From: Glaucostegus cemiculus
Lineage: Eukaryota
Assembly: GCA_976551045.1 (NCBI GenBank)
Contig: CDPCPM010000053.1
Coordinates: 310,001-374,000, forward strand
Reading direction: 5' to 3'
Length of the DNA stretch: 64,000 bases
The position numbers and the translations under genes are program-made. The notes beneath the pieces were generated by a model. That model was not told the origin of the DNA, did not search any database, and was given only the letters and a program-made list of their open reading frames with translations. Of this stretch, positions 3,382-31,249 are shown one piece after another; the stretch's first letter is position 1, and the number at the start of each line of letters is the position of its first letter.

Positions 3382-3384
3382 CAA

Positions 3385-5141: not shown

Positions 5142-5961
5142 CTGTGAAATTGTATGAACCTCAGAGTGTAATGTGGGGGATGGGCATTGCAGTAAGAATA
5201 GAGGCGATTTAATTCGGACACTCATGGCTAAACTAAAACGTTAATAATGAAATCGGCAATGGATTGACGTGGACAGAAAGAGAGCGTCGGCAACAAAGGG
5301 ATGTAGAGAATGTGGATTAATGCAGTAACAGCAGCGAGAGTATCACCTGAAACCTAATAAACACTTAAATAGAGAAGGGCACTGCGTCAAAATAACAACT
5401 TAGAAACTAACAGTCAGTTCAAAAGTGAGGCATTTGGATTATTGTATCTTCGCCGTCTGATCGAATAACGCTTCGTGGATATTAAATAGTGTTTCCAAAT
5501 CTTGTTATATTCATAGCGTGAAATAATCTTGACAAGTTTAATCTGTTAGCTTCTCTTCAGAACGCTTATTGCATGTTATCGAACCAATAGCGAGTGTATC
5601 ACACTTTTCTCTTTCCGCGAACCTCAGCAGCGACACGTTGCAAATGGCCCCTGGTTAGACAACAAACAAATGGAAACATTCTAAGAATGATGTCAAAACA
5701 ACGCTTGCAGTTTTCCACTAGCAGTTTCCAGAATCTGCGATTTCAGTAGTTGTTACAATTAACAACCTAAACGTTGCAGTTATTCAAATGTATTGTATAT
5801 GGACGCTTCATCCGCAGAAAAACAATCCTTTCACTCAGACTAATAATATAAACTAAGTCCAACGAATGGATTGGCTAAGTAAGCTACCAACCGAACCATT
5901 AGGTGCCATAAGCAATCAAGCAGGAGTAAACATTGTGGACCACAGCTTTTTTTAGTTACAA

Positions 5962-6188
5962 TAGAAGAAAGAAGAANNNNNNNNNNNNNNNNNNNNNNNN
6001 NNNNNNNNNNNNNNNNNNNNNNNNNNNNNNNNNNNNNNNNNNNNNNNNNNNNNNNNNNNNNNNNNNNNNNNNNNNNNNNNNNNNNNNNNNNNNNNNNNNN
6101 NNNNNNNNNNNNACAAAGAAGGAAAAGGAGAAAGAAGGAAAGAGAGAAATAAAGACAGAGAATGAAATAAAGAGAGAAAGAAAGAAAG
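5962..6188. repeat. GA-rich microsatellite, partly N-masked (5977-6112)
   Basis: GAAA/GA runs. The paralogous tract 22842-23062 is fully resolved and of nearly the same length. Confidence 0.85.
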
Positions 6189-6327
6189 GCACAGCAGACT
6201 TCTGAATGAAAGTCGCCCTTTAGTCTCCATTTCTTGTGCTGCCGTGCAAATTGAGGAATATCGCCGTCTACTTCATGTTTCAATGGGTCTGATTTTGTTC
6301 GACATATATCAAATTATCCGATTATAT
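6173..6327 (-). repeat. Left arm of a 155-bp inverted repeat (partner 8377-8531)
   Basis: Reverse complement matches 8377-8531 ungapped with 6 mismatches. Confidence 0.93.
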
Positions 6328-6586
6328 GAAAATAACGTGAAAAACTTGGTTAGAAATCTTACGCGATTTATTTGTGCTTCCAAGTTATTGTTTGCGTCTT
6401 TTGTTTAGTTAAGATACGTCCTTTAAATATATCAGCTCTGAAATTAACAACTGGAGCGAGTTTCCTCTGGTAAACAGAGGACCTATTTCAGGGATTTAAA
6501 CAATTAATTCATGTCGCTATCGTCCTTTCATGCCAGAGAAGAATGATCGACTTGTGGCTCGATTATTCACAACACAATTCTTCCCA

Positions 6587-6662
6587 TGACGTCAGATTTT
6601 ATTTTACAAGATGTTCACTTCTGTATTGGCAGCATTTCAATGTCAGGTGACCTCACACGTGT
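6587..6662 (+). promoter_or_regulatory. Candidate proximal promoter of gene A: CRE palindrome plus E-boxes
   Basis: TGACGTCA at 6587-6594, then CAGGTG and CACGTG, all within ~170 bp upstream of the ATG. Retained in copy B (23461 onward). Motif match only. Confidence 0.3.
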
Positions 6663-6755
6663 GCATGGACGCATCGGAGGTATCGGTATATTCGCTGCAC
6701 TTTCATCAACTTTCTGTCAGTCGCACGGAAAGATCAATCTATTTTCTTCATCAGT

Positions 6756-9700: not shown

Positions 9701-11076
9701 TTCGACAAAATCACTAGTGACGAAGGGAAAAAAAAAAAAACAAGATTCCTACTGGCAGCACCTCCGGTTGCGAAATTCCTCAGTTATGCTTCCAATGTAT
9801 ACTGAGAAAAATGTCTTGTGTTATCCCTGGTTCAATTAAAATACCAAAAGTTTGTTGGAAGCTCCCTTTCACGATCAGAAAGTCTGTTTGTGGATGCTGG
9901 TTTTAATATTATAATTTGTTCTCCTTCATCGTTAGTAACAAGGCACAGAGAACGCGCGCACTTTTGTTTTTAGTCAGGTATAATGTGGAATCTGTGGTGT
10001 CGCGGAACACAAGGCTTAAGTACACCATGGAATTTATCAAATTATATGTGATTTCCTTGGTCTGTTGATGAAATAAATAACACTCTTACGTGTATTTTGA
10101 ATATAATATCACTCTCTGTCAGGTACAAAAGCGCGTTCAGGAAATGAAACTCAAAATAACGAAAGGGTAAGCTGAAGTTATTTTCTCTATATTGAGTTAG
10201 AACATTCCTCAGGCGGCTTCGGAATTGAAACATACATTAAGTTGCTTAATCCGTTCCACATTTGGCTCTGGAACTTGACTATTTTTAGAATATCAAGGAT
10301 TCTGATGATTTGAAGATGCAGAGCATTGATGTGTATTTGGACGTTTTCACACATATTATGGCAGTGGAATTAATATTTTAAATCCGCTTTACTGTCAGCA
10401 TCATAAAGAAATATTGTATCCAATCAATCTTGGGTTTCACGAAAGTAACGTCGTCCTGTTTAGTCACATGGTTAATTATAATTCATAAATTAAAAATTGC
10501 GTTTGAATCGTTTCTCAGATTGGTGTTCGCCTTCGTGTGCGTTCCTTTTTTCGTAGTGTCCCTTACATTTAATTCTAATCTAAAATGAGTTCCACCATTA
10601 TTATTAATAACAACAAACATATGGCAATCCAAGGGTAACATAATGAACGACGATTACGTTCTGAACTTAGGAACTGAGTCTTTATCTAAAAAAAATCCCC
10701 AAAGTTTCATTATTTTTACACAGCTTAAAACGTTGATCCTGTAGGACATTTTGTTGCCATTCCTCGGTAAGCGTTTGCCACTTAAAGAAATATTGCATGT
10801 TCTAGACTCTAAATATAATTTCCAACAAGATAAATGTTTCACAATTTGCCTAGAATATGCAATTGCTAATTGATACTTGAAGGTTCAGAAAAATACTGTT
10901 GCACTCACTGAACATTTCATTTTCAGAACCAACAAGAGGATGACGTCGATATAGTCACGTACGTGGATTTGATCCGCAGGTTGGAGAATGATCCACCAAA
11001 ACGGCGCGAAAATAGTTCGGTGTACGCAATGGTAAAGCTCATTTCACACAAGAAAAATAAGGGCTCTGGCAATTAG
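6756..11076 (+). CDS. Gene A: non-rearranging IgSF V-C1 type I membrane receptor with TM Arg and two ITIM-type motifs (NCR3/SIRP-like), 324 aa
   Basis: Exons, all GT-AG and phase-compatible: 6756-6810 leader MLIRGLLLYICSWSTLYR; 7136-7447 V (WRC, YWWR, DAGRYHC); 7683-7985 C1 (C.TTAFYP...LTWYKNG...YTCRVHH); 9528-9638 TM (AAIIAGRVGGAVLILLLTVMLL); 10123-10166; 10927-11076 with VTYVDL and SVYAMV, then TAG. AATAAA at 11306. Confidence 0.9.
8377..8531 (+). repeat. Right arm of the 155-bp inverted repeat, in the C1-TM intron of gene A
   Basis: Inverted copy of 6173-6327. Confidence 0.93.
8815..8985. mobile_element. Short quasi-palindromic repeat derived from Penelope-like element termini (related pieces near 25700-25865, 35485-35585, 36515-36680)
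   Basis: CTGCTGGA...CATCT.TGGAGGGAAATGG.CAGTCGACGT followed by CTGCCTGACCTG.TGAG...TTCCAGCATCTGCAG. The same motifs end the Penelope fragment at 43400-43468 and 45184-45215. Confidence 0.5.
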
Positions 11077-12069
11077 GATTAAATTCCTCGTGATGTGGAT
11101 CAGGATAATTATCTGATGTCATTTTCATTCGGCGCTTTTCAACTGCAATTTAAATATCTTCATGTGTTTCTTTTAAATAGACCAAAGGTTACGCTGATGA
11201 CACCAAACTGGCGTAAGCTGCAGTGGATTTGAAAGGTTCCAAAAATATGCCGGAACTTCAAAAAAAAAGAAACAAAACTAATATACGGCGTGGTGAAAAC
11301 TGGCGAATAAATTCCACTGGAATATCGGAAAGGTTTTGGACTCTCTGTTATCCCGACATAACTTTGTATTGCCTTTTTATGTAACTCTAGTATTGCCACT
11401 TTGCCAGCCTTTTATTTTCTCGATGTCGTGGAAAGACACTGTTGGATTCTGCCCATCTATGCAAGGCACAGTCATTCTGAAGCGTACCCTCGAACAACAG
11501 ACTTAATTTAGTTTGCACCAGCATCACTGTTCTAATCTTCTTTCAGTGGTCGTTTGCTACCACTTGACGGCAATTATTCTGCCTCTTACGATCCCACAGA
11601 TAACGAATTGTAAATCTAAATGGGGCTCAAATCAGAAATAGATACTTCATACATTTTTACCCATCTCCCTTTTTCTCTACGCCATGTCCTTTACTGAACT
11701 CTTGATCAGCGGTAGTTTGTTTTCATCGTTTCTTATTTTGGGAACATCACATTCAGTTTCCATAATTCATGACTTTCCCTCATGTATTTCAACGTCCTAC
11801 AGTTTTACGTTTCCCCTCAGATTGTTCCATTATTTCAGCATGGCATTATTTATCCGAAATCACCGTGTGTACCATAGCCAACCTAAATTGATTGTGTCTT
11901 ATCCACTTTTCCCCAACCCCTTGTGGTCCACTGGACAGGAGAGCATATTTAAGCACATGATTTTCTCGGCTTTCCCCGTTTTTGTTTTCATTGGGACATT
12001 TGGTAAATACTCTGAGCCGAATATCATGTCAAGTAAGAGTGGGCATTTAAAGGAAATTACTGAAAGAAG

Positions 12070-12750
12070 CAATGTTGATGTGCAGTAAGAACTCGATGTC
12101 CAATTCCACTGCTGACTAGAAGAGGGAATGCAGGTCGATAGAGTTGTGAAAAAGACATAGACATGCTTGCCTTCAGAGGTTGGGGCACAGATTATAGAAT
12201 TTGGAAAGTTATGTTTCAACTTTACAAGACAGTGGTTTGGCCAAACTTTATTGCCAACATTTCTGTTCACCAGTTAATAGGAACTAAGCGATTGCGCTTG
12301 AGGGAGTGCAGAGGAGACTCGGCAGCACACTCCCTGGTTTGGAAAAACATGCTTCTAGGGACTGGATAGGTGGTTTTGATTTCTCTTCAACGAAGAAGAC
12401 TGAGTTGTGACCTGCTATTATCTAAAATTATGAGAGGAATGGAAGGCATTGACAGTAGAAATACTTTTTTATTGACATAATGCAAGATGGAAAGGTTTAA
12501 GATAAGAGATTCGAGTGTGAAAGGGGTCTGAGGGGGTCAGTGTTTGACGCAGAGAGCTGTTGATATCAGAAAGTTGCTGCCAGAAGAAGTGGTTGAATCA
12601 GATGAAGTTACCATGATTAAGAGTCATTTGGACATATTTATAAACATCCTAATGGAGGGAAATTGAATTAGTGTAGATGGGCAAAAAGCTCGGCATGGAC
12701 AAAATGGGCCAGGTACAGTTTTGCGCCATACAACTTTATGTTGTGGATCG
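12070..12750 (+). mobile_element. CR1 LINE 3' fragment (paralog 28850-29550)
   Basis: VMFQLYKTVVWP-like CR1 RT C-terminus and CR1-type 3' UTR, decayed. Confidence 0.75.
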
Positions 12751-13254
12751 CTGAACAAAATGTGTCATTACCTTTTTAAATAAAATACTCTAATCTGCTT
12801 CAATGATTGTTGATTCTGATATCTTACTGAGTGTATCTTTAGACGTCTATGGTGGAAATTAAGCATATTGAACTAGAACAAAGGATTATTTGTAACGCTT
12901 GGAAAATCAAAGTATTATGAAGGTCAAAATCCTTAACACACGATTGCACGTCATCCGTGCTAATAAACTGTCCCTGTTTGTGAAGACTGTTTCTGCAATA
13001 GAAGGTTAAGCAGATGAAGGCCAACGTCGTCAAACGGGCGCCATCCAAAATCTCTAACACCAACCCACCCAAAACAGGAGCCCATCCTTCTTTATACCCA
13101 TGTCATGCAACACGACCTCCGGCTGCTGTAACTACCGCTATAGAACGTCTGCAGCTTCTCTGAGATGAACCTGACACTAAATCGGGCAAGCAAAACACCA
13201 CTCTGGAATCTCTTTTGCAGCCACAGAATCTTTGACTATCACTGCCGCCTTGAT

Positions 13255-13390
13255 TGAATTCCACCTTACACGCTGAGCCTCAACAGACGACCCTCAGAAG
13301 TATCCAAAGCGATATTCATGGTGCTGAATGAAACAGCCACGGGGACACCCTGCACTGTCTGCTTCTTCCCCTTACCTCTCCTGTTGGACC
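13255..13390 (-). mobile_element. Short CR1 ORF1 fragment
   Basis: RRGKGKKQTVQGVPVAVSFS..ALDT resembles the ORF1 segment of the CR1 at 52600-53400 (RQIVQRTPEVVSLSDKFSALEA). Confidence 0.45.
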
Positions 13391-13689
13391 TCAGCCCAGA
13401 ATCCGACTCAAGTAAGGCCGTCTCCAAACTTCTTTCACGCATCGTCATGGTGCATTTGATGCAACCTGCAAAACAGTTAACCACAAGTCTCTGTATTTAA
13501 GGTGGTCGCAGTGTTAAGTAATTAAGGACAGTTTTCCATTACAAGTCAATTTCTTAAGGTCCATTTGTCTGATTTTCTGAACACTGCAGAAGAGCGCAAT
13601 ATGACGTCAGATATAGGGAATGTAAATTCCAAATTAATAACCGTTGGCAACTTCATGCAGCTAAACCTTAGTGAAAATCGAAGTATTGG

Positions 13690-15638
13690 GATGCAGGTTT
13701 TTTATCACTGAAACATGCCGCGATTTTTTTTTATTTTGTGGCGGTAGTATAGTGCAAGGCAGAAAGACATAAAAAATACTATTAGTAGGAATAATAAAGA
13801 TAATGGGGTCGTGTTCATGAGCTCATTGAGCATTCATATATCTGATGGTCTGATGCCAGTAGTGAAGAAGCTTTTGGTAATACGTTGAGTGTGGGTCTTC
13901 AGGTTCCTGTACTTCCTCCCAGGTGCCAGTAATGTGAAGAAGGCGTGTACTGGAGGTGAGGGTCTTTAATGATGGATGCTACTTCTTGAAGCACCGCCTC
14001 TGGAAGATGTCCTGGAAGATTGGGAGGGTGCTGCTCATGTTGGAGCTGGCTGAGTCTCCGACTCACTGTTGTCTTCTTTTGATCCTTCACATTGGATTCT
14101 CCAAACTCGGGGTTAATGTAACAAATCAGAATGTTTTCCACAGTACATGTGTAGAAATTTGCAAGAGGTGACATAGCAAATTTCCTCAAAATCTGAATAA
14201 AGTAAAGGAGCTGGCGTGCCTTCCTCCTGATTTGGTCAATGTATTGGGTCCAAGATAGATCCTCCGAGATATTCATTCTCGTAAACATGAAGTTGATCAC
14301 CGGTTCCACCCTTTCCTTCAGTTCACAATCAATTCCTTGTTCTTGATGACATTAAGTGCGAACGTGTTTTTGCAGTATGACTCAACCAACTGGTCTATCA
14401 TACGACTCCTCATCACCATCTGTGATTCTGTCAAATATGGTGTCAGCGGAGAATTTATGGATGGCATTTGAACGGTGCCTAGCCACACAGTCATGAGTGT
14501 AGGGAGAGTAGAGCAGTGGGCTAAGGACGCACCCATGAGGTGTATCTGCATTTATTGTCATCGAGGAGGCACTACCGATACGCACTGATTGCGTCTTCAA
14601 ATAAGGAAGGCTGGGATCCATTTTCAGTCAGGGGGGAAGCAGAAGTACAGGTTGTTAAGCTTGTTGATTAGTGCTGAGGGGTTGATGGTTTTGATTGCCT
14701 CTCTGTATTCGATAAACATCGGCCTGATGTATGCTTTGTTGTTGTCTTAGATTCTCCAAAGCCGAGTGGGGAGCCAGTGAGATTGGCTCCAGTGTAGACC
14801 TGTTGCGGTGGTAGGGAAACTGCAGTGGGTCCAGGTCTTTAATCAGACAGGAGTTAATTCTAGCCATGAACAACTTCTCAAAGTATTTCGTTACAGTCGA
14901 TGTGAGTGCTGCCGGTAGATAGTCGTTGAAGGCAGCTCACCCTGGTCTTCTTGGGCACCGGTATCATCAGTGCCCCTTTTAAGCAGGTGAGAACCTCAGG
15001 CCGCAACAGCGAGAGGTTGACGATGTCCTTGAACACTGCAGCCAGTTGGTCGGCACAGATTTTCAGTACCCTCTCAGGTACACCGTCGGGTGTTGTGTAG
15101 TGTCATTATCCCTTTCAATGACATACAAGTGCACTGTCATTATCCCTTTCAAAGTGTGCATAAAGGCATTGATCTTGACGGAGAGTGAAACATATCTGCC
15201 ACTTATTCTGTTTAGTTTCTCCTTAGGGGAAGTTATAGCATGCAAGCCCTAGCACAGATGCCGTGCATCCGAGTGGCTTCCCTCAGAATTGCCTTTTCGC
15301 TCAAACCATGGCCTTCCGTGCGTCGCAGCTGGACTTTATGTAGGGTTCTGGATATCCGGTTTTGAATGTCACAGATCTCGCCCTCAGAAGACTTGAATCT
15401 CCTCGTTCATTCAGGTCTTCTGCTTTGTTAAGATTCGGGAGGTTTCGAAGGCAGACACTCATCCACGCAGGTCATGATGAAGTCCGTGATGGCTGTGGCA
15501 TATTCATTCAGTTACGACAGTGAATCCCTAAATATATTCCAGTCCACTGGTTTAAAGTAGTTCAATAAACACTCCTCCACCTCCCTGGATTTCACCTTTG
15601 CAGACCTCAGCACTGGCGTTGGGTGCTTCATTCTCTGC
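13690..15638 (-). mobile_element. Rex1/Babar-type LINE, RT and 3' portion (5' part continues at 20272-21260 beyond the Gypsy insertion)
   Basis: LDPLQFPYHRNRST, PHGCVLSPLLYSPYTHDC, KFSADT, FYTCTVENIL motifs. The reading frame LLPTYRQ/RMKHPTPVLR rejoins across the Gypsy element. Confidence 0.85.
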
Positions 15639-18600
15639 TGTTATGTTTGTTCTTCATCACGAGACAAACTTGGCGTGGGTTTAACATCTGAACATTTTAT
15701 TAGAACAGCAAAGCAACAACAACAGACTGTACAGACTGCAAAGAGAGGCTGTCTGGCTTTTCTCACACTTTCCAGCCACTTCCTGTTCCCCCATATTACC
15801 CTTTCCATTGTCGCTGGGAACTGCAGTTCTTTATTACAACTACATAATAACACATACTAACACACCTTCCCCTTTGAAGAAAAAAAAGCAAACACAATAC
15901 TCTGTCCTTATAAACCTACCAAGAACACTTGTCTACTTAGCAGCTTTCAATCAGTCTTTGAGATGGTTTTATGGTCCCTGTTGGTCTGGTACTTATTTCT
16001 GCCGGCGTGTTGCTTTCATTTCCTGCATTGGTGTTTTACTTGTACCTCTGGTCCACAAGTTCATTTTCTCCATATGCTGGCCCCTTTGGTGTACTGACAG
16101 GAGACGGGTTACAGCCATGGGTCGAAGATTGTGGCCGTAGATCCATGCGGTTCCCCCTCAGAATCGTCCTTCGCTCCGTCTGGCTATAGTACGAATGTAG
16201 ATTGACTTACTCTTGCACAGCTCATTGCATGGATCGTTTGTCAGAATCATGATCTCAGATTCGCAAATAATGCCCAGGTTTCAAGACTAGTAGGCATTTC
16301 ACTGTCTTCTCCTAATTCTGTTTCTGCTTTTCTTTGTTTCATCTTTAGCCTGTTTGACCTTGTGTGCTCCTTGAGGTGTCAACAGGTTTTCATGTATTGG
16401 AAGGTTAGTGCGAATACATCGACGCATCAGCAGTTGGGATGGTGAAAGTCTGATCTGCAGTGGCACACTATGTACATCATTGGACTTCGATGTAAATCCT
16501 CTCGTCCATCTTGCGCTTTCTTCATGAGACCCTTCACTACCTTAACTGAACTCTCTGCGAGGCCTTATGACTTTGCGTGATGTGGGCTTGAGGTTATATG
16601 TCGAAACCCCCCAAACATTGACAAAGGATTCAAACTCACTCTCGAATATTGTGGACCATTGTGTGATACTACTTCACATGGATCTCCATGCCTCACAAAC
16701 ACATCTTTCAGGAAATTGATAACTGCTTGGCTGGACGTTGATTGCAGTGTTGCAGACTCTGGGTAATTGGAAAAGTAGTCTGTTGCAACAATATGGCTCT
16801 TCCCACTACAGTCAAATAAATGCACTCCAACTTTGATATGCGGCCTGTCTGGTACAGTATATGGTATAAATGGTTCTGATTGCTGCTTTTGTCTGTAGGT
16901 AAATCATATTTCACATGACGCAGTAGTCCGGCTGAAGTCTTGGTTCATTATTGACCAGTACGTCACTTCACGTGCTCTATGTTTACACATTTCCTCCCCA
17001 AGGTGCCCTTCGTGTATATTCTGGATCATCTCCTTGCGTAGTGACACTGGAATCACAAAACTGTTGCCTTCGAAACCATATATTTCACTACAGACAGTTC
17101 AGCTCTGCATGCCCAATAGTCCCGAATGCACATTGGAGAATCATCCTTTTCTTCTGGCCATCCTTACCATATCGTATCTTTGTGTACCTTCATTGTTTCA
17201 TCTGCTCTGCTGCTTTCCTAGTGTGCTCTGTTCTACCCGGATATACTGGAAGAGAGCTGACAATCATGTCAACAAAGGCCTGTATAACTGCGTTAACCTG
17301 TTAGTCACTTTTTTCCGGTCTTGTCCACTGCTCGAGACAGAACATCAGCAGCAAACATATACTTTCCGGTGTGTAGCTCACCTTCACATCATATTTCTGC
17401 AGTATTATCCACATGCACTGTATCCTCACGGAACAGTCATTCAGTTGTACATAATGAATTCAAAAGGGTTATGTCTGTCTCTACTTCAACAGCTTGCCAA
17501 CATATGTCGTGGTGGAACCTTTCACATGCAGATGTCGTGGAGAGAAGCTCTCTCTCTATTTGTGCATAGTTGGCTTCCGCACTCGTTAAAGCTTTTGATG
17601 CATAGGCCACAGGTTGAAATGTGCCATCATGCTGCTGCAGTAGTACTGAACCAAGGCTGTGCTGGGACGCATCAGCTAATATCCTGATTCACTTTTCTGG
17701 TTTATAAAATTTCAGCACGGGCTCTTCATTTCGGACCCGTTTCAACGTCAGTAAAAAAAAACTCTTCTTGCTCATGAGACCAAAACCATTCAGTTTTTTG
17801 TTCCCTGAGGGAGTGACCTAAGTGGTGCTGACACTGTTGACAGACGAGGGATGAACTTATCCAGGGAAGTCACCATCCCTAAGAAACGTCTCACTTCCGC
17901 ATTGTTTTGAGGACTCTCCATGTTTTAAATGGTTGATATCTTTCTTGGGTCAGGCTTCACCCCCTCTTCAGATATGACATCTCCTATGAAGGTCAGTGTC
18001 TTCACATCAAACTCACATTTCTTTTTATTTAATTTCAAATTGACTTTCCTTGTCACGTCAACCACTTGTCTCAGTTGACCAACGTGGTTCTCTTTGGTGG
18101 ACCCCCAGACGATGTTGTCATCCATCATGATCTCCACACCAGCTATGCCCTCTAAAAATCATGTGGATGGTTTTATGGTAGACGTCTGCTGCAGGCCGTA
18201 TCCCAAATGGCAGCCGATGATAGCGATGTCTTCCATTGTTGTGTTAAAAGTACACAGTCTCCAACTTGCCTAATCAAGCTTCACCTGCCAAAATCCAGAC
18301 GATGCGTCGAGCTTGCTAAATCATTTGTCACCTGAAAACAGAAACATGATCTCTTCCTGTGTTGGCAATTTAAAATGCTCTCTCTTGATGGCTTTTCTCA
18401 GATCGCTTGGGTCCAGATATATCCGTAATGCTCCATTTTTCTTTTGCACGGTGATCAGTGAACTCACTCAATCTGTTGGTTCTTCAATTTTCAGTATGAT
18501 ATTCATTCGTTCCATGCGTGCTAATTCTTGGTTAAGTTTATCTCCAAGTTGAAACGGAACTTTCCTGCATGCATGGACCACAGGAGCCACTACCCCATCT

Positions 18601-20268
18601 ATGTGAATTTTGTGTACACCAGGAAAGCATCCGAGCACCTCAAAGACATCAGGATACTCTTCCATGAGTGCTGTGTGGTCATCTTTGGTATGTGAAGCTA
18701 CTATGAAAGCTCTTTTCACTAGGTGGAGCTTTACGCAGTCAATCGGACCTAATAGTAGCTGTACTCGCTTTTCTACAATCAGTAGCTGTGATTTTTAAGT
18801 ACTGCCATTTGTGCTTAAAGGTCACCATACAGCCCTCTTTTACTGGAACTTTCTCTCCAGTGTAGCCTGTCACTTTTAGCTTTACAGGGTAAAACTAACT
18901 CTTTACTGTGAGAGTCTTATAATCATCCATGAACAACAGATTCACCTGAGCTCTGGTGTCAAGCTCGAATGGAATTGCTGTCTCATTCACCGTTATTGGA
19001 AGAATCCATTGTTTTACCAGCAGCCTCAGTCTTAATAGAATCTCTAAAGAATTCCTCAATTTTCTCATCAACTATGTGCATCTTTCTCTTGTTGGACCCA
19101 GCTTTACAGCATCTTGCAAAGTGATTCTTCTTCCCTCAGCTATTGCAGGGCTTCCCATAAGCACGACACGTCATTGGAATGTGTTTACCTCCACATCTGC
19201 TGCATTTGCTGTTTGAGCCTTCCTCTTTGGTTTGCTGTTAATCTCCGAAACTCCTTGGGAACTACTTCTCTGTTTTCACAACATGTACTGTTGTGTCTGC
19301 TCTGTAAAGCTCGTTAGCTTGTGCTCGTATGGCTTCTGCTGACCTACAAGTATTCATCACCTTTTCCAGGGTCAAATCATTTTCACGCAAACATCTTTCT
19401 CTGCGTCCGTTATCTGGAATTTCACAAACTATTCTGTCTTTAACTAGTAAGTTTCTCAAATCTCCAAATTCACAAGGCTTACACAGTGTGCGAAGATCAG
19501 CTGCGCATCGGTCGAAGCTAACACCTTGATTCAGGTTACAGAAAAAGAATTTATATCCCATGTTTTACTTGGGATAAAATGCTACTCAAATCTTTCCATC
19601 AGCTGCCCAACTCAAAAGCTATTTCATCAAAGTGAAAGCTGTTATAGATGTCCAAAGCATCTTCGCCAATCACGTGCAGAAATATGGACGCTTTCAATTT
19701 TTCATCGTTTCTTCCCACTCCACTAGCATATGAACATATGTTGAATCCCTATTTGAAGCGTTTCCAATTATCGTCTAGATTGCTTTTAAACTGCATAGGC
19801 TTGGGAGAACATAGGTGATCCATAATAGGAAATCTCGGCCTCTCACCTGAATCTCTTTGGCAAATCCGGTGCATGCTGAACTTCGGGAACAATGTGCTCG
19901 ATCGCCACGTTGGCCGGCTTTTTCTCCGTCTTTTTGCAGCTTTTCCTTCGTATTTACTGAGTCACTTTCTCAACTGCACACAGTATTCGTTTACTTTCCT
20001 TGTTCAGACCTCAAACCAACTTCTGATACCATGTTATGTTTGTTTTTCATCACGAGACGAACTTGGCGTGGCTTTAAACGTCTGAACATTTAATTAAAAC
20101 AACAAAAAAACAACAAAAGACTGCATAGACTGAGGCTGCACAGGGAAAGACAGGCTGGCTGGTTTCTTCCGGTCTTTCCAGCTACTTTCTGTTACCCATG
20201 TGACCCCTTGCATTGCCTGTTGGGAACTGTAGTTCTTTATTAGAACTACATAATAACGCATAATAACA
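15639..20268 (-). mobile_element. Two-LTR decayed Ty3/Gypsy element, copy B (3' LTR 15639-15862, 5' LTR 20032-20268)
   Basis: Two TG...CA LTRs, PBS at 20019-20031, and polypurine tract AAAGGGGAAGG next to the 3' LTR. Order gag-PR-RT-RH-IN (integrase TDYFSNYPE, HNGPQY, HITSSPH). Probable CTGC target duplication, with 3 extra nt on the right side. Confidence 0.93.
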
Positions 20269-20271
20269 CAA

Positions 20272-21260
20272 CTGCCTATATGTCGGGAGTAGAACTACAA
20301 CCAGATGATGGGACTTGACGAAGTAGGACATGGGATTGCATAGGTAAGTGTTTTTGATGGTGGTATAGCAGTGATCGAGTGTGTGAACTCTTCTAGTTTC
20401 ACAGGTAACATGCTGTTGTTAGTTGGCCAGAGACTTCTTCAAGATGGCCTAGTTGAAGTCTCCGTGATGGTCAGGAAGGCATAAGGGGGCGCTGCCTCCT
20501 GACCAGAGATCACGGTGCTCAGCTCCTCCAGTATAAGATTGACACTTGCCAGGGGTACACCGCAACCATGATGACGTTAGTGAACTCCCTCCGCAGGTAG
20601 AACGGACGACACTTGAACATCAGATGTTCCAGACCGGGGAGCAAAACTGAATCAGAACTGTCACGTCTGTGCACCACGAAGAGTTAATCATGAAGCCAGC
20701 ACCGCCGGCTCTGCCTTTACCTCTTGCTGCCGTCCGGTCCATGCGGTGGATGGCGAAGCGCTCAGGCTGGAGCTCTGATTTCGGAGTGCTGTGGGTGAGT
20801 CCTCTCTCTAAGAAGAAAAGTATCTAACAGACCCTGATGTCCCTATGGTTTTGTTGTCTTGCTCTGAGGTCTTCCATTTTATTTACAATAGACTATACAG
20901 TAACCAGGAGGATGATAGCCGGGGGGATTGGGGGAGGAGGGACTGAGACATGGCCCTGCCTGCGTCTCAATTTTACCTGCCATCATGCCTGCAGCCACGT
21001 TTTCTGAAACAATGGAGACGTTCCCTGAGGTGGTGGTCTAGAGTCCCGAGCCTGCCGGTTGTTACGATCGCTAGTTTCTTTAAAGGACTTGAAATAATGT
21101 TGTAAGCGGGAGCGTTGGGATCTCTCGGGATCTGCTTTAAAACTGTTTGCTCTCTCTGGTGCCATTTCCTTGAGGCATTGCAAACAAGTAATCATGCCAG
21201 AGTGACATCTTGAAAGTGTTTGTGCTTACTGCTTAATAAAGGAGACTTCAGTGCCTTCGC
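20272..21260 (-). mobile_element. Rex1/Babar-type LINE 5' portion, copy B
   Basis: Paralog of 3385-4370. Confidence 0.75.
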
Positions 21261-21406
21261 CGAAATAACAACAGAAAGATTTACAAATGCTCAATACCCT
21301 TTTAACAAGTGAGATTTAAAACTACCTCTTTTCAATTTTTTCTCATCTTTACATTTGTTTCGTTCCAGGGCGGAAACGCAGTCAACAGAAGAAAACAGAA
21401 TTCAGA

Positions 21407-22026
21407 TCAATAATGGAGGAACCTAACCACAAAGTAGCACTGAAGTATAAGTGCGTAGGAAGCGCTGATGACTGTTGCGTTTGGGGACCCGTGAACTCGC
21501 GAGGCACCTTCTCCAGCTTGTGGCTTTGTTTCCTCTAGCGATAGCTGTTCATTGTCAGTTGATATTTCCGTTGGCCACTGATGAGATGAGCCCATGAGAT
21601 CAGGTTTAGTTCAGTTCTGCACACTTCTTAATGATTAGTTTCGAACAAGCGATCGTTAAACGTTATGTTTACATTTGCCTCGACGAATGTGAATTAAAAT
21701 GCAATTCTCAAGCTTATTTAGCTAAGGATTCAAGCTCATGGAATGGGCGCAGGAATATAATGTGAGACTTGCGGATTCATTTTCTCCAACAGTGCTAATG
21801 TTTAAAGGATTAAATAAAAGTTAGGTTCAAACCTGACCCTAGTAACCTATACCCTAGCACACTTCTCTTGTGTCGGCTTCCCTCTTGTGTCTGCTACTTC
21901 AATCTCCAAGAAAGTACATCTATTTTGGTTGCAGGCAGCTCAGCCAATGCTCCTTGGAACTTTCTGCAGCTTCTTTGCAAGCTGGCAGTTTTTTACTTCG
22001 GTTCCGACTGTCACTGCAGGAACTAA
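21407..22026 (-). pseudogene. Possible remnant of an antisense gene with a GPI-signal-like terminal exon, copy B (exons 22026-21853 and 21577-21407)
   Basis: 174-nt phase 0/0 exon LVPAVTVGTEVKNCQLAKKLQKVPRSIG*AACNQNRCTFLEIEVADTRGKPTQEKCAR joins in frame to WPTEIST...SASYALILQCYFVVRFLHY*. One internal TGA. Confidence 0.3.
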
Positions 22027-22841
22027 CTGTGAAATTGTATGAACCTCAGAATGTAATGTGGGGGATGGGCATTGCAGTAAGAATAGAGGCGATTTAATTC
22101 GGACACTCATGGCTAAACTAAAACGTTAATAATGAAATCGGCAATGGATTGACGTGGACAGAAAGAGAGCGTAGGTAACAAAGGGATGTAGAGAATGTAG
22201 ATTAACGCAGTAATGGCAGTGAAATTATCATCTGAAACCTAATAAACACAAGTAGAGAAGGACTCAAAATAACAACTTAGAAGCTAACAGTCAGTTCAGA
22301 AGTGACGGCATTTGGATTATTGTATCTTCGCCGTCTGATCGAATAACGCTTCGTGGATATTAAATAGTGTTTCCAAATCTTGTTATGTCCATAGCGTGAA
22401 ACCATCTTGACAAGTTTAATCTGTTAGTTTCTCTTCAGAACGCTTATTGCATGTTATCGAACCAGTAGCGAGTGCATCACACTTTTCTCTTTCCGCGAAC
22501 CTCAGCAGCAACACGTTGCAAATGGCCCCTGGTTAGACAACAAACAAATGGAAACATTCTAAGAATGACGTCAAAACAACGCTTGCATTTTTCCACTAGC
22601 AGTTTCCAGAATCTGCGATTTCAGTAGTTGTTACAATTAACAACCTAAACGTTGCAGTTATTCAAAGGTATTGTACATGGACGCTTCATCCACAGAAAAC
22701 AATCCTTTCACTCAGACTGTAATAATATAAACTAAGTCCAACGAATGGATTGGCTAAGTAAGCTACCAACCGAACTATGAGGTGCCATAAGCAATCAAGC
22801 AGGAGTAAACATTGTAGACCACAGTTTTTGTTAGTAACAAT

Positions 22842-23062
22842 AGAAGAAAGAAGAATCAAGATAGAAAGAAAGAAGGAAGGAACGAAAGAAAGAGAGAAAG
22901 AGAAAGAAAGTGAAAATGAGAGAAAGAAAGATAGAATGAAAAAGAAAGAAAGGAAAGAAAGAAAGAGAGATAGAGAATGAAGGAAGGGACAAAGAAGGAA
23001 AAGGAGAAAGAAGGAAAGAGAAAAATAGACTGAGAATGAAATAAAGAGAGAAAGAAAGAAAG
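22842..23062. repeat. GA-rich microsatellite
   Basis: Degenerate (GAAA)n/(GA)n tract. Confidence 0.9.
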
Positions 23063-23201
23063 ACACAGCAGACTTCTGAATGAAAGTAGCTCTTTAGTCT
23101 CCATTTGTTGTGCTGCCGTGCAAATTGAGGAATATCGCCGTCTACTTCATGTTTCAATGGGTCTGATTTTGTTCGACATATATCAAATTATCCGATTATA
23201 T
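23047..23201 (-). repeat. Left arm of the inverted repeat, copy B (partner 25258-25412)
   Basis: Paralog of 6173-6327. Confidence 0.92.
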
Positions 23202-23629
23202 GAAAATAGCGTGAAAAACTTGGTTAAAAATCTTATGCGATTTATTTGTGCTTCCAAGTTATTGTTTGCGTCTTTTGTTTAGTTAAGATACATCCCTTAA
23301 ATGTATCAGCTCTGAAATTAACAACTGGAGTGAGTTTCGTCTGGTAAACAGAGGACCTATTTCAGGGATTTAAGCAATTAATTCATGTCGCTATCGTCCT
23401 TTCTTGCCAGCGAAGAATGATCGACTTGTGGCTCGATTATTCACACCATAATTCTTCCCCTGACGTCAGATTTTATTTTACAAGATGTTCACTTCTGTAT
23501 TGGCAGCATTTCAATGTCAGGTGACCTCACACGTGTGCATGGACGCATCGGAGGTATCGGTATATTCGCTGCACTTTCATCAACTTTCTGTCAGTCGCAC
23601 GGAAAGATCAATCTATTTTCTTCATCAGT

Positions 23630-26600
23630 ATGTTAATTCGCGGTCTACTTTTATACATCTGTTCCTGGAGTACATTGTACAGAGGTACAAGTTAAATCTG
23701 TTTGTTTATTGTTAACTCTTCATGAGACAAAATCGCACAAATGCTGTCACGCAAACTTAATCTTCATTTCAAGAGAATGTGTGTTTTAGATGTAACATGT
23801 TCCCTCTGTCCTTGTTAAAATGAGGAGAATTTTAAGTTGTTTTGAAATTCTAATGCTGACTGAAGTAAAGCAGATATTGTTTGTTTTCCCTAATGGTAAT
23901 TGTTATTAATTTATGCATCACTGGACCTAACTCAAAATAGTTTTTATAGTGCAGATTATCTTCGCTAAAAGGGAATGATTTAACCCCAATTTTCATGGTT
24001 TATTCATAGCCACTTTGCAGAGTTCTGGCAATGAACCAAGCAGCGTTGTGCAACATAAGGCTCTCAAAGGGACAAACGTTACCTGGCGTTGTCCTTTCCC
24101 CTTCCAGCTGGATCCATCGAAAGTAAGGGTTTACTGGTGGAGAGGTGCAAATCGGACTCTCCTCAATAAAGACAGCAGAAAAGTTTTCATTGTAAAGAAG
24201 GGTTGTGCTTATCTTCATCTCCTGAATGTGACCATTACGGACGCTGGCCGATATCACTGTGCAATCAAGTATGAAGATCAAATGGCTGGAAAGGAAACTG
24301 AAGGGGAACTTTTTGTCTATGGTGAGCGTTGTAAACATGTGAAAGTGCCTAGGTATTGGAATGTGCTCCGAACAATGGCCACAAAAATATATCGCAGGAA
24401 TTTAATAACAGATATACAAAGTTAATAGCAGGCTAGCTTTGCTTCTGGATCACATTGAACTCTCTCAAAAATATATTGCTAATATGAAGTTAAATAGTGT
24501 GGAACAGTATTGCCCAAATATTGTTTTATCTGTATTTTCTTATTCTACGTTTAGCCGCACCTGCTCCTTTGAAGATTGTTTCCATACAATCAGAATCCCC
24601 ATCTCCATTTCCGAATCTCCAGTGTGCAACGACAGCATTTTACCCAAAGGAGTTTAATCTTACCTGGTATAAAAATGGGACCGAAATCCGGACTGGAATT
24701 GAGAATGAACTAAAGACCAACACAGATGGGTTATCCGAAGTTATCAGCTTCTTACAAGAAACGGAAGCAGTGAAGGGCAGCACCGTTTACACCTGTCGGG
24801 TACATCATATTTCTATTTCAATTCCAGCAACTGCCAACTATACGGTTCCAATTACAGGTAACGTGACTCCATGCTCGAAGTTCCATCATAAAGTGCAAAA
24901 TAGATTATTTCATAAGATATATTAGGAGCTGTCATTTAATATTCTGTGAGACGAATGGACAATATCCACTATTCAATTTCCATCTAAGTGGCTGCAGACG
25001 TCCACTTTATTATTGGTTTGAACCAAACCTGAGATATACTCGGCACTCAGATTATCTCATGGCAAATACCCTAGGCAGCATGATCATACATGCGCGGCAA
25101 TTAATCTAAATAATGTAGTCTGAACATGGCTGATGCCAAAAACATAGTGCGAGGGGAATGGAAAGAATGGATGACACAGTGTGCATACTTCAAGTAAAGC
25201 AAAATTCTCGCTCAGTTCCAGTAAATTCAACCTGTACTGCTGTCAAAGCAGGTAAAGATATAATCGGATAAATTGATATATGTCCAACAAAATGAGACCC
25301 ATTGAAACATGAATTAGACGGCGATATTCCTCAATTTGCACGGCAGCACAAGAAATGGAGACTAAAGAGCGACTGTCATTCAGAAGTCAGCAGTGCCTTT
25401 CTTTCTTTCTCTGGCTATTCTGGCCGCAGGAACGCTCCGACTACCCTCCTCCCGCTTAGTGGGTCTAACCACCCGTTCCGTTGTTTATTTGAAGCAAATG
25501 TGAAATGCATTGGACGATCATTAATTACCACATGTACCAGCCGTAAGCAAAATGTTCAAAAGATCAGAGTAGTTAGTTTGACGATACATTGTGGACAGAT
25601 TGATGAAAAAATCTACCCGGATAAATTAGCACAAGCTGAATTATCGTGTAACATGTAATCTCGGGAATCCTGGAAACAACAAGCATCTCAACGTTAAAGA
25701 AAGGCACAAACTGCTGGACGAGTTCAACGGATTAGAAAACATCTACGGAGGGAAATGGGCAGTCGTCGTGTGGGGTCGAGACCAACTGGAGCAGTCTGCC
25801 TGACCTGTGAGTTCTTCCAGAAGATTTCTCGGCACTATATTCCAGCATCTGCAGTCTCTTGTGGCAGCATCCCAAGTTCATCTCAAGGAAGCACGCCGGC
25901 AATATCTCGCTACTGAGCCAAATACGGAATAAGATTCACGCTGTTCCAATTTACTGTGGGATTTAATGATCATACAAAACAGAAATTAAGAAATGAATAA
26001 TCTCCCTGACTGTAACTTCTTTTTTCAAATTTTGGGAATTTATATCCTGATTGATTGTAACCTATTTCAATCTTTATGTTTCGTAATACTGAAAATAAAT
26101 GAACGCACTTGAATTATTCTCCCACGTGATGCAAGGTCATGTATAACAAATTATGCTTCGACAAAATGGAAAGTTAGCGTTGGTTCTCAATTGGTTCTTT
26201 ACCTCTTATTTCTCATTGTGCAATTAGCCAATTCTTGTCAGAGGAGCATGTAGTATGTAGACAGGACGGTTGTTAATTTGAACCTTTTTATATCGGTTAA
26301 CTATTGCGCAGGTTCCAATGAATCATCTCAATTTTATGCTGCCATAATTGCTGGAAGTGTCGGAGGTGCGGTGTTAATTCTGCTGTTGACAGTCATGCTT
26401 TTGAAAAGAGTTCGACTCAGAGGTATGACGTTCTTCTTTACGAGCTTTCTAATGGCGTATTTTAACAAATTAGTTAATCAAGAATTCGACAAAATCACTA
26501 GTGACGAAGGGAAAAAATATTTCCAAGATCCCTACTGGCAGCACCTCCGGTACGAAATTCCTCAGTTATGTTTCCAATGTATACTGAGAAAAATGTCTTG

Positions 26601-27855
26601 TGTTCTCCCTGGTTCAATTAAAATACCAAAACTTTGTTGGACGCTCCCTTTCACGATCAGAAAATCTGTTTGTGGATGTTGGTTTTAATATTATAATTTG
26701 TTCACCTTCATCGTTAGTAAAAGGCACAGAGAACGCGCGCACTTTTGTTTTAAGTCAGGTATAATGTGGAATCTGTGGTGTCGCGGAACACAAGGCTTAA
26801 GTACACCATGGAATTTATCAAATTATATGTGATTTCCTTGGTCTGATGATGAAATAAATAACACTCTTACGTGTATTTTGAATATAATATTACTCTCTGT
26901 CAGGTACAAAAGCGCGTTCAGGAAATGAAACTGAAAATAACGAAAGGGTAAGCTGAAGTTATTTTCTCTATATTGAGTTAGAACATTCCTCAGGCGGCTT
27001 CGGAATTGAAACATACATTAAGTTGCTTAATCCGTTCCACATTTGGCTCTGGAACTTGACTGTTTTTAGAATATCAAGTATTCTGAAGATTTGAAGATGC
27101 AGAGCATTGATGTGTATTTGGACGTTTTCACACATATTATGGCAGTGGAATTATTATTTTAAATCCGTGTTACTGTCAGCATCATAAAAATATATTGTAT
27201 CCAATCAACCTTGGGTTTCACGGAAGTAACGTCGTCCTGTTTAGTCACATGGTTAATTATAATTCATAAAATAAAAATTGCGTTTGAATCGTTTCTCAGA
27301 TTGGTGTTCGCCTCCGTGTGCGTTCCTTTTTTCGGAGTGCCCCTTACATTTAATTCTAATCTAAAATGAGTTCCACCATTATTATTAATGACAACAAACA
27401 TATGGCAATCCAAGGGTAACATAATGAACGACGAATGCATTGTCAACTTAGGAACTGAGTCTTTATCTAAAAAATCCCCAAAGTTTCATTATTTTTGCAC
27501 AGCTTAAAAAGTTGAGCCTGTAGGACTTTCTGTTGCGGTTCCTCGGCAAGCGTTTGCCACTTAAAGAAATATTGCATGTTCTAGACTCTAAATAAAATTT
27601 GCAACAAGATAAATGTTTCACAATTTGCCTAGAATATACAATTGCTAACTGATACTTGAAGGTTCAGGAAAATACTGTTGCACTCACTGAACATTTCATT
27701 TTCAGAACCAACAAGAGGATGACGGTGGTATAGTCACGTACGTGGATTTTATCCGCTGTAAGGAGAATGATCCACCAAAACGGCGCGAAAATAGTTCGGT
27801 GTACGCAATGGTAAAGCTCATTTCACACAAGAAAAATAAGGACTCTGGCAATTAG
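23630..27855 (+). CDS. Gene B: non-rearranging IgSF V-C1 type I membrane receptor with uncharged TM and tyrosine motifs VTYVDF and SVYAMV, 324 aa
   Basis: Exons 23630-23684, 24010-24321 (V), 24555-24857 (C1), 26312-26422 (TM AAIIAGSVGGAVLILLLTVMLL), 26904-26947, 27706-27855. Same sizes and phases as gene A, open frame, intact GT-AG sites. Confidence 0.9.
25258..25412 (+). repeat. Right arm of the inverted repeat, copy B
   Basis: Paralog of 8377-8531. Confidence 0.92.
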
Positions 27856-28849
27856 GATTAAATTCCTCGTGATGTGGATCAGGATAATTATCTGATGTAA
27901 TTTTCATTCGGCGCTTTTCAACTGCAATTTAAATATCTTCATGTGTTTCTTTTAAATAGACCAAAGGTTACGCTGATGATACCAAACTGGCGTACGCTGC
28001 ACTGGATTTGAAACGTTCCAAAAATATGCCGGAACTTCAAAACAATGAATCCAAACTAATATACGGCGTGGTGAAAACTGGCGAATAAATTGCACTGGAA
28101 TATCGGAAAGGTTTTGGACTCTCTGTTATCCCAACATAACTTTGTATTGTCTTTTTATGTAACTCTAGTATTGCCACTTTGCCAGCCTTCTATTTTCTCG
28201 ATGTCGTGGAAAGACACTGTTGGATTCTGTCCATCTATGCAAGGCACAGTCATTCTGAAGCGTATCTTCGAACAACAGACTTAAATTAGTTTGCACCAGC
28301 ATCACTGTTCTAATCTTCTTTCAGTGGTCTATAGCTACCACATGACGGCAATTATTCTGCCACTTACGATCCTCCCGTTAACGAATTGTAAATCTAAATG
28401 GGGCTCAAATCAGAAATAGATACTTAATACATTTTTACCCATCTCCCTTTTTCTCTACGCCATGTCCTTTACTGAACTCTTGATCAGCGGTAGTTTGTTT
28501 TCATTGTTTCTCATTTTGGGAACATCACATTCAGTTTCCATAATTCATGACTTTCCCTCGCATCATGTATTTCAACGTGCTACAGTTTTACTTTTCCCCT
28601 CAGATTGTTCCATTATTTCAGCATGGCATTATTTATCCGAAATCACCGTGTATACCATAGCCAACCTAAATTGATTGCGTCTGATCTTCTTTTCCCCAAC
28701 CCCTTGTGGTCCACTGGACAGGAGAGCATATTTAAGCACATGATTTTCTCGGCTTTCCCCGTTTCTGTTTTCATTGGGACATTTGGTAAATACTCTGAGC
28801 CGAATATCACGTCAAGTAAGAGTGGGCATTTAAAGGAAATTACTGAAAG

Positions 28850-29550
28850 AAGCAATGTTGATGTCCAGTAAGAACTCGATGTCCAATTCCACCGCTGACC
28901 GGAAGAGGGAATGCAGGTCGATAGAGTTGTGAAAAAGACATAGACATGCTTGCCTTCATAGGTTGGGGCACAGATTATAGAATTTGGAAAGTTATGTTTC
29001 AACTTTACAAGACAGTGGTTTGGCCAAACTTTATTGCCAGCATTTCTGTTCACCAGATAATAGGAACTAAGCAATTGCACTTGAGAGAGTGCAGAGGAGA
29101 CTCTACAGCACACTCCCTGGTTTGGAAAAACATGCTTCTAGGGACTGGATAGGTGGTTTTGATTTCTCTTCAACGAAGAAGACTGAGTTGTGACCTGCTA
29201 TTATCCAAAATTATGAGAGGAATGGAAGGCATTAACAGTCAAAATACTTTTTTATTGACATAATGCAAGATGGAAAGGTTTAAGATAAGAGATTCGAGTG
29301 TGAAAGGGGTCTGAGGGGGTCAGTGTTTGACGCAGAGAGCTGTTGATATCAGAAAGTTGCTGCCAGAAGAAGTGGATGAATCAGATAAAGTCACCATGAT
29401 TAAGAGTCATTTGGACATATTTTTAAATAGGCCAGCCGGAGAATAATTCCATTCTAATGGAGGGAACTTGAATTAGTGTAGATGGGCAAAAAGCTCGGCA
29501 TGGGCATAATAGTCCAGGTCCAGTTTTGCGCCGTACAACTTTATGTTGTG
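28850..29550 (+). mobile_element. CR1 LINE 3' fragment, copy B
   Basis: Paralog of 12070-12750. Confidence 0.75.
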
Positions 29551-31249
29551 GATCGCTGAACAAAATGTGTCATTACTTTTTTTAATAAAATACTCTAATC
29601 TACTTCAATGATTGTTGATTCTGATATTTTACTGAGTGTATCCTTAGACGTCTATTCTGGAAATTAAGCAAATTGAACTAGAACAAAGGATTATTTGTAA
29701 CGCTTGGAAAATCAAAGTATTATGAAGGTCAAAATACTTAACACACGATTGCACGTCATTCGTGCTAATAAACTGTTCCTGTTTGTGAAGACTGTTTCTG
29801 CAATAGAAGGTTAAGCAGATGAAAGCCAACGTCGTCAAACGGGCGCCTTCCAAATTCTCTAACACGAACACTCTTGCTGGTACCTTACTATGATGAAGCA
29901 GATTATTCGCGGGCAATGTCTAATTTCACATCAGATCAAAACACCTGTTTTTAGTTTTGTTTTACTTTGGATAACCTTTTCTCTAATTATATTTTGAATA
30001 ATTTCAGACCCTCTGTGTTATAATCTCCATACACACGACTTGGTAAAAGTTCTGTTTTTCTGCTTCAAACCCGCAAAATCTGTGCCTGTGTGGTGGAAAT
30101 AGTGTAGATATGGAAAAGTTATTGCATGTTTATTTAATTCATTGATTTAATAAATAAAATATTTACATTTCATAAAGAATTCTACTGAAATCATATGAGA
30201 CATTTCGGATGAAATTATGACTCTGGAAATGTCGCAGATTTTTGTCTGGTGTTGGTTCTGTGGTATAAAGAGAAGGTGCTCGTACAACAGATATTCTGGA
30301 ACATTGGGGTTACTTTCGTTAATCCCAAACTCTTAATTTTTTCTAACACGTTACGCAATGACATAATAGATATTCAAAAGAAACTTGATTGGTGCGGGAA
30401 ATAGAAAAAAAAATGCTGACCCCCGCTCCGTCCACTAACCTCGTTGATTTCCAAACTCAAATATTCTGGAAGTCAACCCCAGCTCTAGTTTCACATTCAG
30501 CCAGGGAACCTCAGTTCACATTCCAGACCATTGTGTGTGGCAGAGGCAGGAATATCAGGATTTACAAAATAGCAGGTGCCAGTCTGAAAACTTCACTGGT
30601 ATGTAGGATCAATATTGATAGGCACAACGGGCACATCGAAATGTTGTGCCGAAAGGCTTGCTTCTCCACTGTACGGCTCTGACTCTTCAAGTCTGAAAAC
30701 ACGGGTGTATTTTTTTCATTAACCCAGGGTTTTGCAAATCTGATAGCCCAAGGATCATAACTTGGGGTTTATCTATTTACAACTAACAGGGAAAGGAAAA
30801 TAATAACCCTATTTTCCTGAAGATGCAAACTTCGATGAAACCAATGATGTTTAAAGATGCGAAATCCGTGAAAAATACATTACTCGTTGCCAAAAGCAGA
30901 TCAAGAGCAAGGTATGGACTTCGATATTGGTTGCTCGGTGACCAAAATTGTAACGTCCGTCTTGTTTTCCAAACGTGAAACATTGATAATTGTTAGGATT
31001 CAGAAAGATTTGTCTTCTCTTCTACATGCATCACCGAGAATATTCGCACGATTAATATAATAAAACTGAATGTTCTACTCAGGTGATACACTAAGATGAA
31101 TGAAGGGGAACATTCATACGTTCAAGCTGTTGTGAAATTGCATCCAGAGTACGTTGTGCAGTTTTGGCCTACTGATCAAGGAAATGATAATATGAGTCAG
31201 AACCGGTGTAATAAATGGTCCCTCGTTTGAGTCCGAAGAATGTAGGATG

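Follow-up and report, generated by a model that had tools for sequence, protein, structure and literature searches.

Two adjacent receptor genes with almost the same ectodomain may both inhibit, or one of them may have begun to turn into an activating partner of the other. This question is raised by a 64,000-nucleotide stretch of Glaucostegus cemiculus DNA (contig CDPCPM010000053.1, positions 310,001 to 374,000; hereafter the window, whose own coordinates are used throughout), in which two copies, A and B, of such a gene lie side by side. A first-pass annotation of positions 26312..27855, made by eye from sequence, had proposed that the copies share a ligand and that selection re-tuned their signalling exons. 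Here the gene models, the divergence of each exon and the homologs in other cartilaginous fish are used to ask which changes set the copies apart and what these changes would do.

A tandem duplication of a receptor gene

A and B arose by tandem duplication of one receptor gene encoding a V domain, a C1 domain, a transmembrane (TM) segment and a tail with tyrosine motifs. The duplicated units are as follows:

-2486 to 13064, forward strand: duplication unit A, which begins about 2.5 kb to the left of the window (1..13064 within it)
13075..29869, forward strand: duplication unit B, head-to-tail downstream of unit A

The non-coding parts of the two units differ at 529 of 14235 aligned sites (3.72%), and this value of about 3.7% was taken as the neutral baseline. 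It is unlikely that A and B are alleles assembled in tandem; over 1371 nt, A-type contigs from a short-read run, X1, match A at all but 3 sites (0.2% divergence), as against 3.7% between A and B. Both tail types occur in run X1, which also speaks against alleles, the contigs used lying outside the 13064-13075 junction. As it departs from the assembly at a few sites, X1 represents another haplotype or individual, and may be the other haplotype of the assembled individual. The contig holds many additional members of the same receptor family. One paralog close by shares 87-94% identity in its individual exons with a sawfish protein, as would be expected in a ray.

The receptor tail very likely extends beyond the exon first called last

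The exons of A, as modelled, are:

6756..6810, forward strand: leader exon (55 nt), assigned by its length, its position and its likeness to paralog leaders
7136..7447, forward strand: V exon, whose codon at 7153 encodes an additional, derived Cys
7683..7985, forward strand: C1 exon
9528..9638, forward strand: TM exon
10123..10166, forward strand: cytoplasmic exon 1
10927..11031, forward strand: cytoplasmic exon 2, with the canonical proximal ITIM VTYVDL
11181..11310, forward strand: last exon, broken by a stop at the ITIM Tyr, a Leu>Val change and a 1-nt insertion near 11260

Those of B are:

23630..23684, forward strand: leader exon (55 nt), predicted from its match to paralog leaders in length and place
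24010..24321, forward strand: V exon
24555..24857, forward strand: C1 exon (Pfam C1-set, E 5e-11)
26312..26422, forward strand: TM exon, uncharged
26904..26947, forward strand: cytoplasmic exon 1 (44 nt), with a Q>E difference between A and B
27706..27810, forward strand: cytoplasmic exon 2 (105 nt), with the non-canonical proximal motif VTYVDF and a donor GT at 27811
27811..27959, forward strand: predicted intron (149 nt), the read-through of which gives the 150-nt 'last exon' of the first-pass annotation
27960..28088, forward strand: last exon, intact, with the ITIMs LAYAAL and LIYGVV followed by a stop

All acceptors in both models are AG and all internal donors GT, and the predicted products are 352 aa for B (357 aa in a horn shark homolog) and 321 aa for A. 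Leader candidates near 21100 and in an insert found only in B were ruled out by a stop or by the lack of a donor.

The earlier gene model had missed both the 44-nt exon at 26904-26947 and the last exon, which in A contains the stop. Positions 27706-27855 are very likely not the last exon; on the homology and splice signals described here, the exon would end at 27810 and be joined to 27960-28088. Homolog searches found this further ITIM exon just past the stop at 27855, with a pyrimidine-rich AG ahead of 27960, and the alignment of annotated homologs crosses the 27810/27960 joint and runs to the C-terminus with the same end as B. A donor after the second tyrosine codon group was seen in all four of the other two-exon tails inspected on the contig, and the short intron at this conserved donor measures 131 nt in paralog D and 149 nt in A and B. 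Given the donor at 27811, the second 'ITIM' previously described would take its last residue from intron read-through. That donor has A at +5, and a read-through of the 149-nt intron would mask the stop in A; in B the read-through frame is open until a stop at 27853-27855.

A has gained a TM arginine and a stop predicted to remove its distal ITIMs

Two features of A are absent from B:

9572..9574, forward strand: derived Arg codon in the TM helix of A (Ser in B and in paralogs C and D)
11214..11216, forward strand: stop codon (TAA) at the ITIM tyrosine of A

The Arg was taken to be derived because Ser occupies the same site in B and in both paralogs, and it lies within the best hydropathy windows of 19, 21 and 23 residues. 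Behind the TAA, the last exon of A carries Leu>Val, Arg>Gly and the 1-nt insertion, which falls in an A-run; in all, 7 substitutions and this insertion separate it from the last exon of B besides the stop. Paralog D has Tyr and a Leu-type codon at the positions of the stop and the Val of A. Judged by sequence, B in its predicted splice form would carry two canonical distal ITIMs and A would carry the proximal ITIM only; having lost two distal ITIMs and kept the proximal one, A is not a clean activating form. A simple neutral model, rough and applied post hoc, gives a chance of 1.5-2.4% that the TM Arg and the stop would both fall in one copy.

Run X1 supports both changes. One X1 contig over the TM exon of A keeps the Arg letter, and its single other letter changes Lys to Glu. 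At A position 11216 the total depth was 8.09, of which the B letter accounted for 3.79; the difference of about 4.3 indicates a second X1 contig carrying the stop of A, the contig itself not being among the listed pieces. The 1-nt insertion lies outside the coverage of the A-type X1 contig, so that the support from X1 applies to the Arg and the stop only. A further run, X2, yielded nothing more on these sites.

We reasoned that these changes could represent successive steps of a switch. An uncharged, long-tailed ancestor was duplicated in tandem; on the polarity given by paralogs C and D, Ser was then replaced by Arg in the TM helix of A; and Tyr was replaced by a stop in its last exon, behind which the sequence decayed, a change present in the DNA whose effect would depend on the predicted splice. 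From general knowledge, the A message would evade nonsense-mediated decay because the stop lies in the last exon. The Arg would be predicted to pair with the Asp of an ITAM adaptor of the FcR-gamma or CD3-zeta type, and purifying selection, perhaps together with conversion, would keep the ectodomains at the low divergence observed. Two TM exons with Asp from the zeta/FcR-gamma family are present in this genome as candidate adaptors; a complex prediction of the A TM exon with two copies of an FcR-gamma-like TM exon, run without controls, scored 0.02. We consider it somewhat probable that A is an early activating or bifunctional partner of a likely inhibitory B, with the same predicted ligand. 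Early paired-receptor divergence over a shared ectodomain, as first proposed, is supported on firmer grounds than those first given, by the derived Arg and the stop at the ITIM Tyr and not by the excess of replacements to which it had been attributed.

The ectodomains have diverged less than their surroundings

The shared ectodomain lies within the following feature:

23968..24850, no strand assigned: low-divergence tract of the V exon, the V-C1 intron and the C1 exon, ascribed to purifying selection and possibly to conversion

The earlier counts for V and C1 were reproduced exactly, with 6 differences in 615 nt, of which three are silent and three change an amino acid (C>G, R>K and A>T). That these exons lie below the flank level was likewise borne out (3 of 312 and 3 of 303 nt, where the baseline is 3.7%; P about 0.003 for either exon), and none of 1000 permutations gave an 848-column window as low as the lowest one observed (9/848 nt). 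In the ectodomain dN was 0.0067 and dS 0.0185, and the V-C1 intron stood at 0.013 (3/233). When polarised by paralog C, only 1 of the 6 V and C1 differences falls on the A lineage, against 11.4 changes expected under drift (P=1e-4), which argues that the ectodomain of A is under selection or has recently been overwritten.

On these patterns, it is plausible that conversion between A and B has acted on the ectodomain. The V-C1 intron together with the silent sites differs at 6 of 395 positions (P=0.009 against a flat baseline). Compared with paralog C, the same intron differs by about 11-12%, versus 18% downstream, and once this slowness is allowed for P becomes 0.20-0.25. Other pairs of the receptor cluster show patchy identity.

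Arginine-bearing, short-tailed copies recur among homologs

All named homologs come from cartilaginous fish; SIRP-alpha-like and tapasin-like are common among their automated labels, and many are called 'tyrosine-protein phosphatase non-receptor type substrate 1-like' in databases. From 61 V-C1 hits, 45 with a TM segment by hydropathy and 2 near the threshold were kept; removal of 6 same-cluster duplicates and of 1 without an anchor left 40 rows, and removal of 5 misaligned rows left 35. A TM Arg is present in 14 of the 35, one column before that of A in 12 of them, at +2 in one and at +3 in another; none of the 35 has Arg at the column of A itself, which is one residue C-terminal of the usual position. 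Tails of at least 90 aa were found in 0 of the 14 TM-Arg homologs versus 11 of the 21 uncharged ones (Fisher P=9e-4, Mann-Whitney 5e-4), P values that are generous, since related sequences were compared and the threshold of 90 aa was chosen after seeing the data. The two groups were not separated by ITIM content alone: an ITIM was present in 4 of 14 versus 12 of 21 (P=0.17; P=0.105 for all 40 rows), and two or more ITIMs in 0 of 14 versus 6 of 21 (P=0.06, again among related rows).

A tree built from 25 V-C1 sequences placed A with B, horn shark P0003 with P0004 and zebra shark P0163 with P0167 as separate sister pairs (support 96/93, 100/99 and 100/100, respectively), each made up of an uncharged, long-tailed copy and an Arg-bearing, short-tailed copy. 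Zebra shark P0167 has lost the distal ITIM and kept the proximal one, as in A; the sequences of P0004 and P0167 come from automated gene prediction. The Arg lies at three different columns in the three pairs, which suggests separate origins, though conversion could mimic sister ectodomains. Paralog C, the sister of A and B, carries its TM Arg at the column usual for the family, but its V exon is frameshifted and no tail was detected; the Arg state thus occurs in dead genes as well.

The broken state of paralog C gives weight to a different reading of A, namely that A, being redundant, is decaying into a pseudogene, in which the Arg, the stop, the frameshift and the Cys are unselected damage and the V-C1 region was recently converted from B. 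The low-divergence tract would fit such a history in that it takes in the intron, the Arg of A sits off the usual column of the family, no count test rejects neutrality of the signalling exons, and the frameshift of A and its new, unpaired Cys are what decay would be expected to leave. Set against this, the lesions of A have struck the two features that define the switch, the same pairing recurs in two other sharks, and A has kept its leader, V, C1 and TM exons and every splice site intact, although the last point is weak, the expectation for 930 nt being about 2 indels (P0=0.12). We regard pseudogene formation as unlikely, albeit as an explanation of some standing, and return to A as an early activating or bifunctional partner.

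A wider proposal follows from the homologs: cartilaginous fish could possess a large V-C1 paired-receptor system, in which activating forms would arise repeatedly by acquiring a TM Arg of flexible position and losing the terminal ITIM exon, with an intermediate, bifunctional stage of one ITIM, of which A would be an example. This is offered tentatively, as a possibility that we hold with some doubt.

Changes around the proximal ITIM are clustered and compatible with neutrality

The signalling exons had been described as differing only by replacement changes, and this did not survive recounting; one codon change is silent, and replacements are no more frequent than chance allows. Three changes in the TM exon (K>E, H>Y and R>S) were recovered, of which K>E is not fixed, as the A-type X1 contig has Glu. 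The count of 9 differences in 150 nt at 27706-27855 was also recovered, though in an exon that is very likely not the last and with 8 of the 9 coding, the G>D change being intronic. Over the 291 nt that are coding in both copies, 13 differences were seen against 10.8 expected (P=0.29; P=0.26 when counted as 9 events), and the four signalling exons together differ at 20 of 389 nt (P=0.09); with the earlier boundaries, dN was 0.054 versus 0.037 (P=0.14). Cytoplasmic exon 2 alone (105 nt) has 8 changes, P=0.042 uncorrected. The per-exon test against the intron baseline, by which the first-pass annotation had itself proposed to be judged, was not significant, and the replacement excess can no longer serve as a sign of selection on the proximal ITIM (ITIM1).

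The cluster around ITIM1 is real, with 8 changes in 37 nt, but it has non-coding equals in the same alignment (8 in 36 nt at 22196 and 7 in 36 nt at 26517). Two of the 8 internal clusters of at least three changes lie in cytoplasmic exon 2, and the non-coding sequence of the duplicate holds more such clusters than expected throughout (9 versus 2.7). When polarised by paralog D, the B lineage has acquired Gly-Gly in place of Val-Asp, Phe in place of Leu and, likely, Cys in place of Ser, and the A lineage has altered two codons next to the changes of B in one three-base run; the eight changes would thus amount to about four mutational events split between the lineages. A genome search for a third paralog as donor of these clusters returned only A and B, and across the 588 kb of the receptor cluster examined the best other match had at least 7 mismatches in 25-26 nt. 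As judged from this pattern, the ITIM1 changes look mostly like neutral or relaxed by-products, and the proximal motif of B looks dispensable. The available part of an SH2-specificity review (PMC7337045) gives no answer as to whether SHP2 accepts Phe at pY+3.

A derived proximal motif in B would also be expected if both copies were inhibitory and had divided the motifs between them, with A using the proximal ITIM and B the distal pair, and with the Arg tolerated and no adaptor recruited. The losses are complementary, A being without distal motifs, and in one B-type X1 contig (depth 5.3) the Tyr of the proximal motif is changed to Asn; this letter comes from one contig only, and the division of motifs leaves unexplained the TM Arg of A and those of the two other sister pairs, so that we judge it improbable. 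The model of the first-pass annotation itself, in which both copies end in a 150-nt exon and positive selection re-tuned ITIM1 through Leu versus Phe at pY+3, is very improbable; the open read-through frame, the uncorrected P value and the two clusters in this exon can be cited for it, and are outweighed by the conservation of the donor and the next exon in paralogs and homologs, by the few events over both lineages, by the excess of similar clusters in non-coding sequence and by the available portion of a study according to which multinucleotide changes can mimic selection (bioRxiv 10.1101/165969). The interpretation of A as a nascent activating or bifunctional receptor draws instead on the Arg and the stop.

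Relation to known paired receptors

SIRP ectodomains have the layout V-C1-C1, and SIRP-beta1 bears a Lys and uses DAP12; NCR3/NKp30 has a single V domain ahead of an Arg-bearing TM segment. The A/B pair resembles SIRP-alpha/SIRP-beta1 in having V and C1-set domains, and SIRP-alpha is the top PDB hit for the C1 exon (E 3e-12); for the V exon, the PDB search gave generic Ig matches only. A and B differ from SIRP in that one V and one C1 exon, not two C1, precede the TM exon, and from NCR3/NKp30 in that a C1 exon is present. UrIg, as set out in the accessible part of its description (PMC12227049), is V-C1-C2-C3. By sequence, the pair would work in the manner of KIR/Ly49 or PIR pairs; the domain count separates it from SIRP, and it is not NKp30 either.

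According to the available portion of Abi-Rached and Parham (2005; PMC2213150), activating KIR arose through a positive charge in the TM segment and a stop inside the ITIM; activating KIR and Ly49 forms were born repeatedly and were short-lived; and which of the two changes came first in KIR could not be told, as both map to one branch. A is alike in the charge introduced into its TM segment and the stop in an ITIM, and the repeated births may be compared with the three separate pairs and the broken, Arg-bearing paralog C. A differs in being an unrelated V-C1 receptor of cartilaginous fish with Arg in place of Lys, in that its stop lies in a distal ITIM with the proximal one kept, and in being known from sequence alone.

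Charged TM segments recruit adaptors of the FcR-gamma type, and receptors with both a charge and an ITIM exist, as the accessible parts of two papers describe (PMC3601082, PMC3210942); among these, KIR2DL4, CHIR-AB and bifunctional rat Ly49 combine a positive TM charge with an ITIM, as A does by sequence. Chicken CHIR-AB, on the same partial sources, has a long tail with two ITIMs, and A differs in being a very young derivative beside a near-identical inhibitory twin. In merohomogenization, as far as the available part of Fossum et al. (2011; PMC3210942) describes it, similarity peaks over the ligand-binding exons and falls in the stalk/TM exon and the tail, as it does between A and B; both forms are older than speciation there, whereas A and B are young, so that purifying selection alone may suffice.

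The principle of an inhibitory-to-activating switch is already known; in the largely non-subscription literature searched, no paper was found that describes the present V-C1 family of cartilaginous fish or its pairs, which does not prove that none exists. The most informative change sat just beyond the interval 26312..27855 given in the first-pass annotation. The appeal of the locus is moderate and lies in how few mutations part the two copies; with 3.7% divergence, a single TM substitution and a single stop, it amounts to a minimal natural experiment in a basal lineage of jawed vertebrates. If the proposed switch is true, the order and the effect of each of its steps would be directly testable in A, and, to judge from the similar pairs of horn shark and zebra shark, the rule of inhibitory-first origin and recurrent birth may not be specific to mammals.

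Alignment of the A and B copies

When the two head-to-tail receptor genes were aligned, each copy was found to carry a segment absent from the other:

window 13733-15023, 1292 nt, B only
A 9351-9447, 97 nt, A only

Across the whole A/B alignment, substitutions occurred in clusters of at least two in excess of expectation (57 observed, 37 expected); clusters of at least three numbered 9 against an expected 2.7, one of the nine being a ragged alignment end. Transitions and transversions were about equally frequent (271:266).

The V domains of both copies have a cysteine at a position held by glycine in homologs, and their G strands are without the usual Gly-x-Gly; the A V exon additionally encodes a derived extra cysteine close to the N-terminus (window 7153). 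In one B-type contig assembled from the short-read run X1, at a depth of 5.3, the proximal ITIM tyrosine of B (window 27739-27741; A 10960) is replaced by asparagine; either an allelic variant or an error could explain this change.

Further members of the family and candidate adaptors

Another family gene follows in the window, for which TM and tail exons were not located (window 35604-37430):

window 35604-35658, leader candidate
window 35786-36115, V
window 36819-36917, partial C1 repeat, ahead of the full C1
window 37119-37430, full C1

Elsewhere in the genome, two candidate adaptor TM exons, L092 and L093 (contigs C143 and C524), carry the conserved cysteine and aspartic acid and match Pfam PF11628 above cut-off; by likeness, they are labelled CD3-zeta-like and FcR-gamma-like.

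To the left of the window lies paralog C, which the tree grouped as sister to A plus B with support of 100/100:

G000:C53:287255-290900, ~19-23 kb left of the window, leader, V, C1 and TM exons

Its TM exon encodes arginine at the column usual for the V-C1 family, its V exon contains one deletion and one frameshift, and no tail exon was found in the 16.6 kb downstream. By its sequence, paralog C looks like an older activating derivative, now dead.

A second large cluster of V exons, more distant at 30-42% identity, was observed at G000:C238:2.64-3.32 Mb. On C53, the contig carrying the window, ectodomain identity was patchy in two other pairs:

G000:C53 451-453 kb and 533-535 kb
G000:C53 118-121 kb and 222-225 kb

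As an example among the C53 pairs, V differed at 8/310 positions, versus 14-16% in intron and flanks; this patchiness suggests that these pairs have undergone exon-wise conversion.
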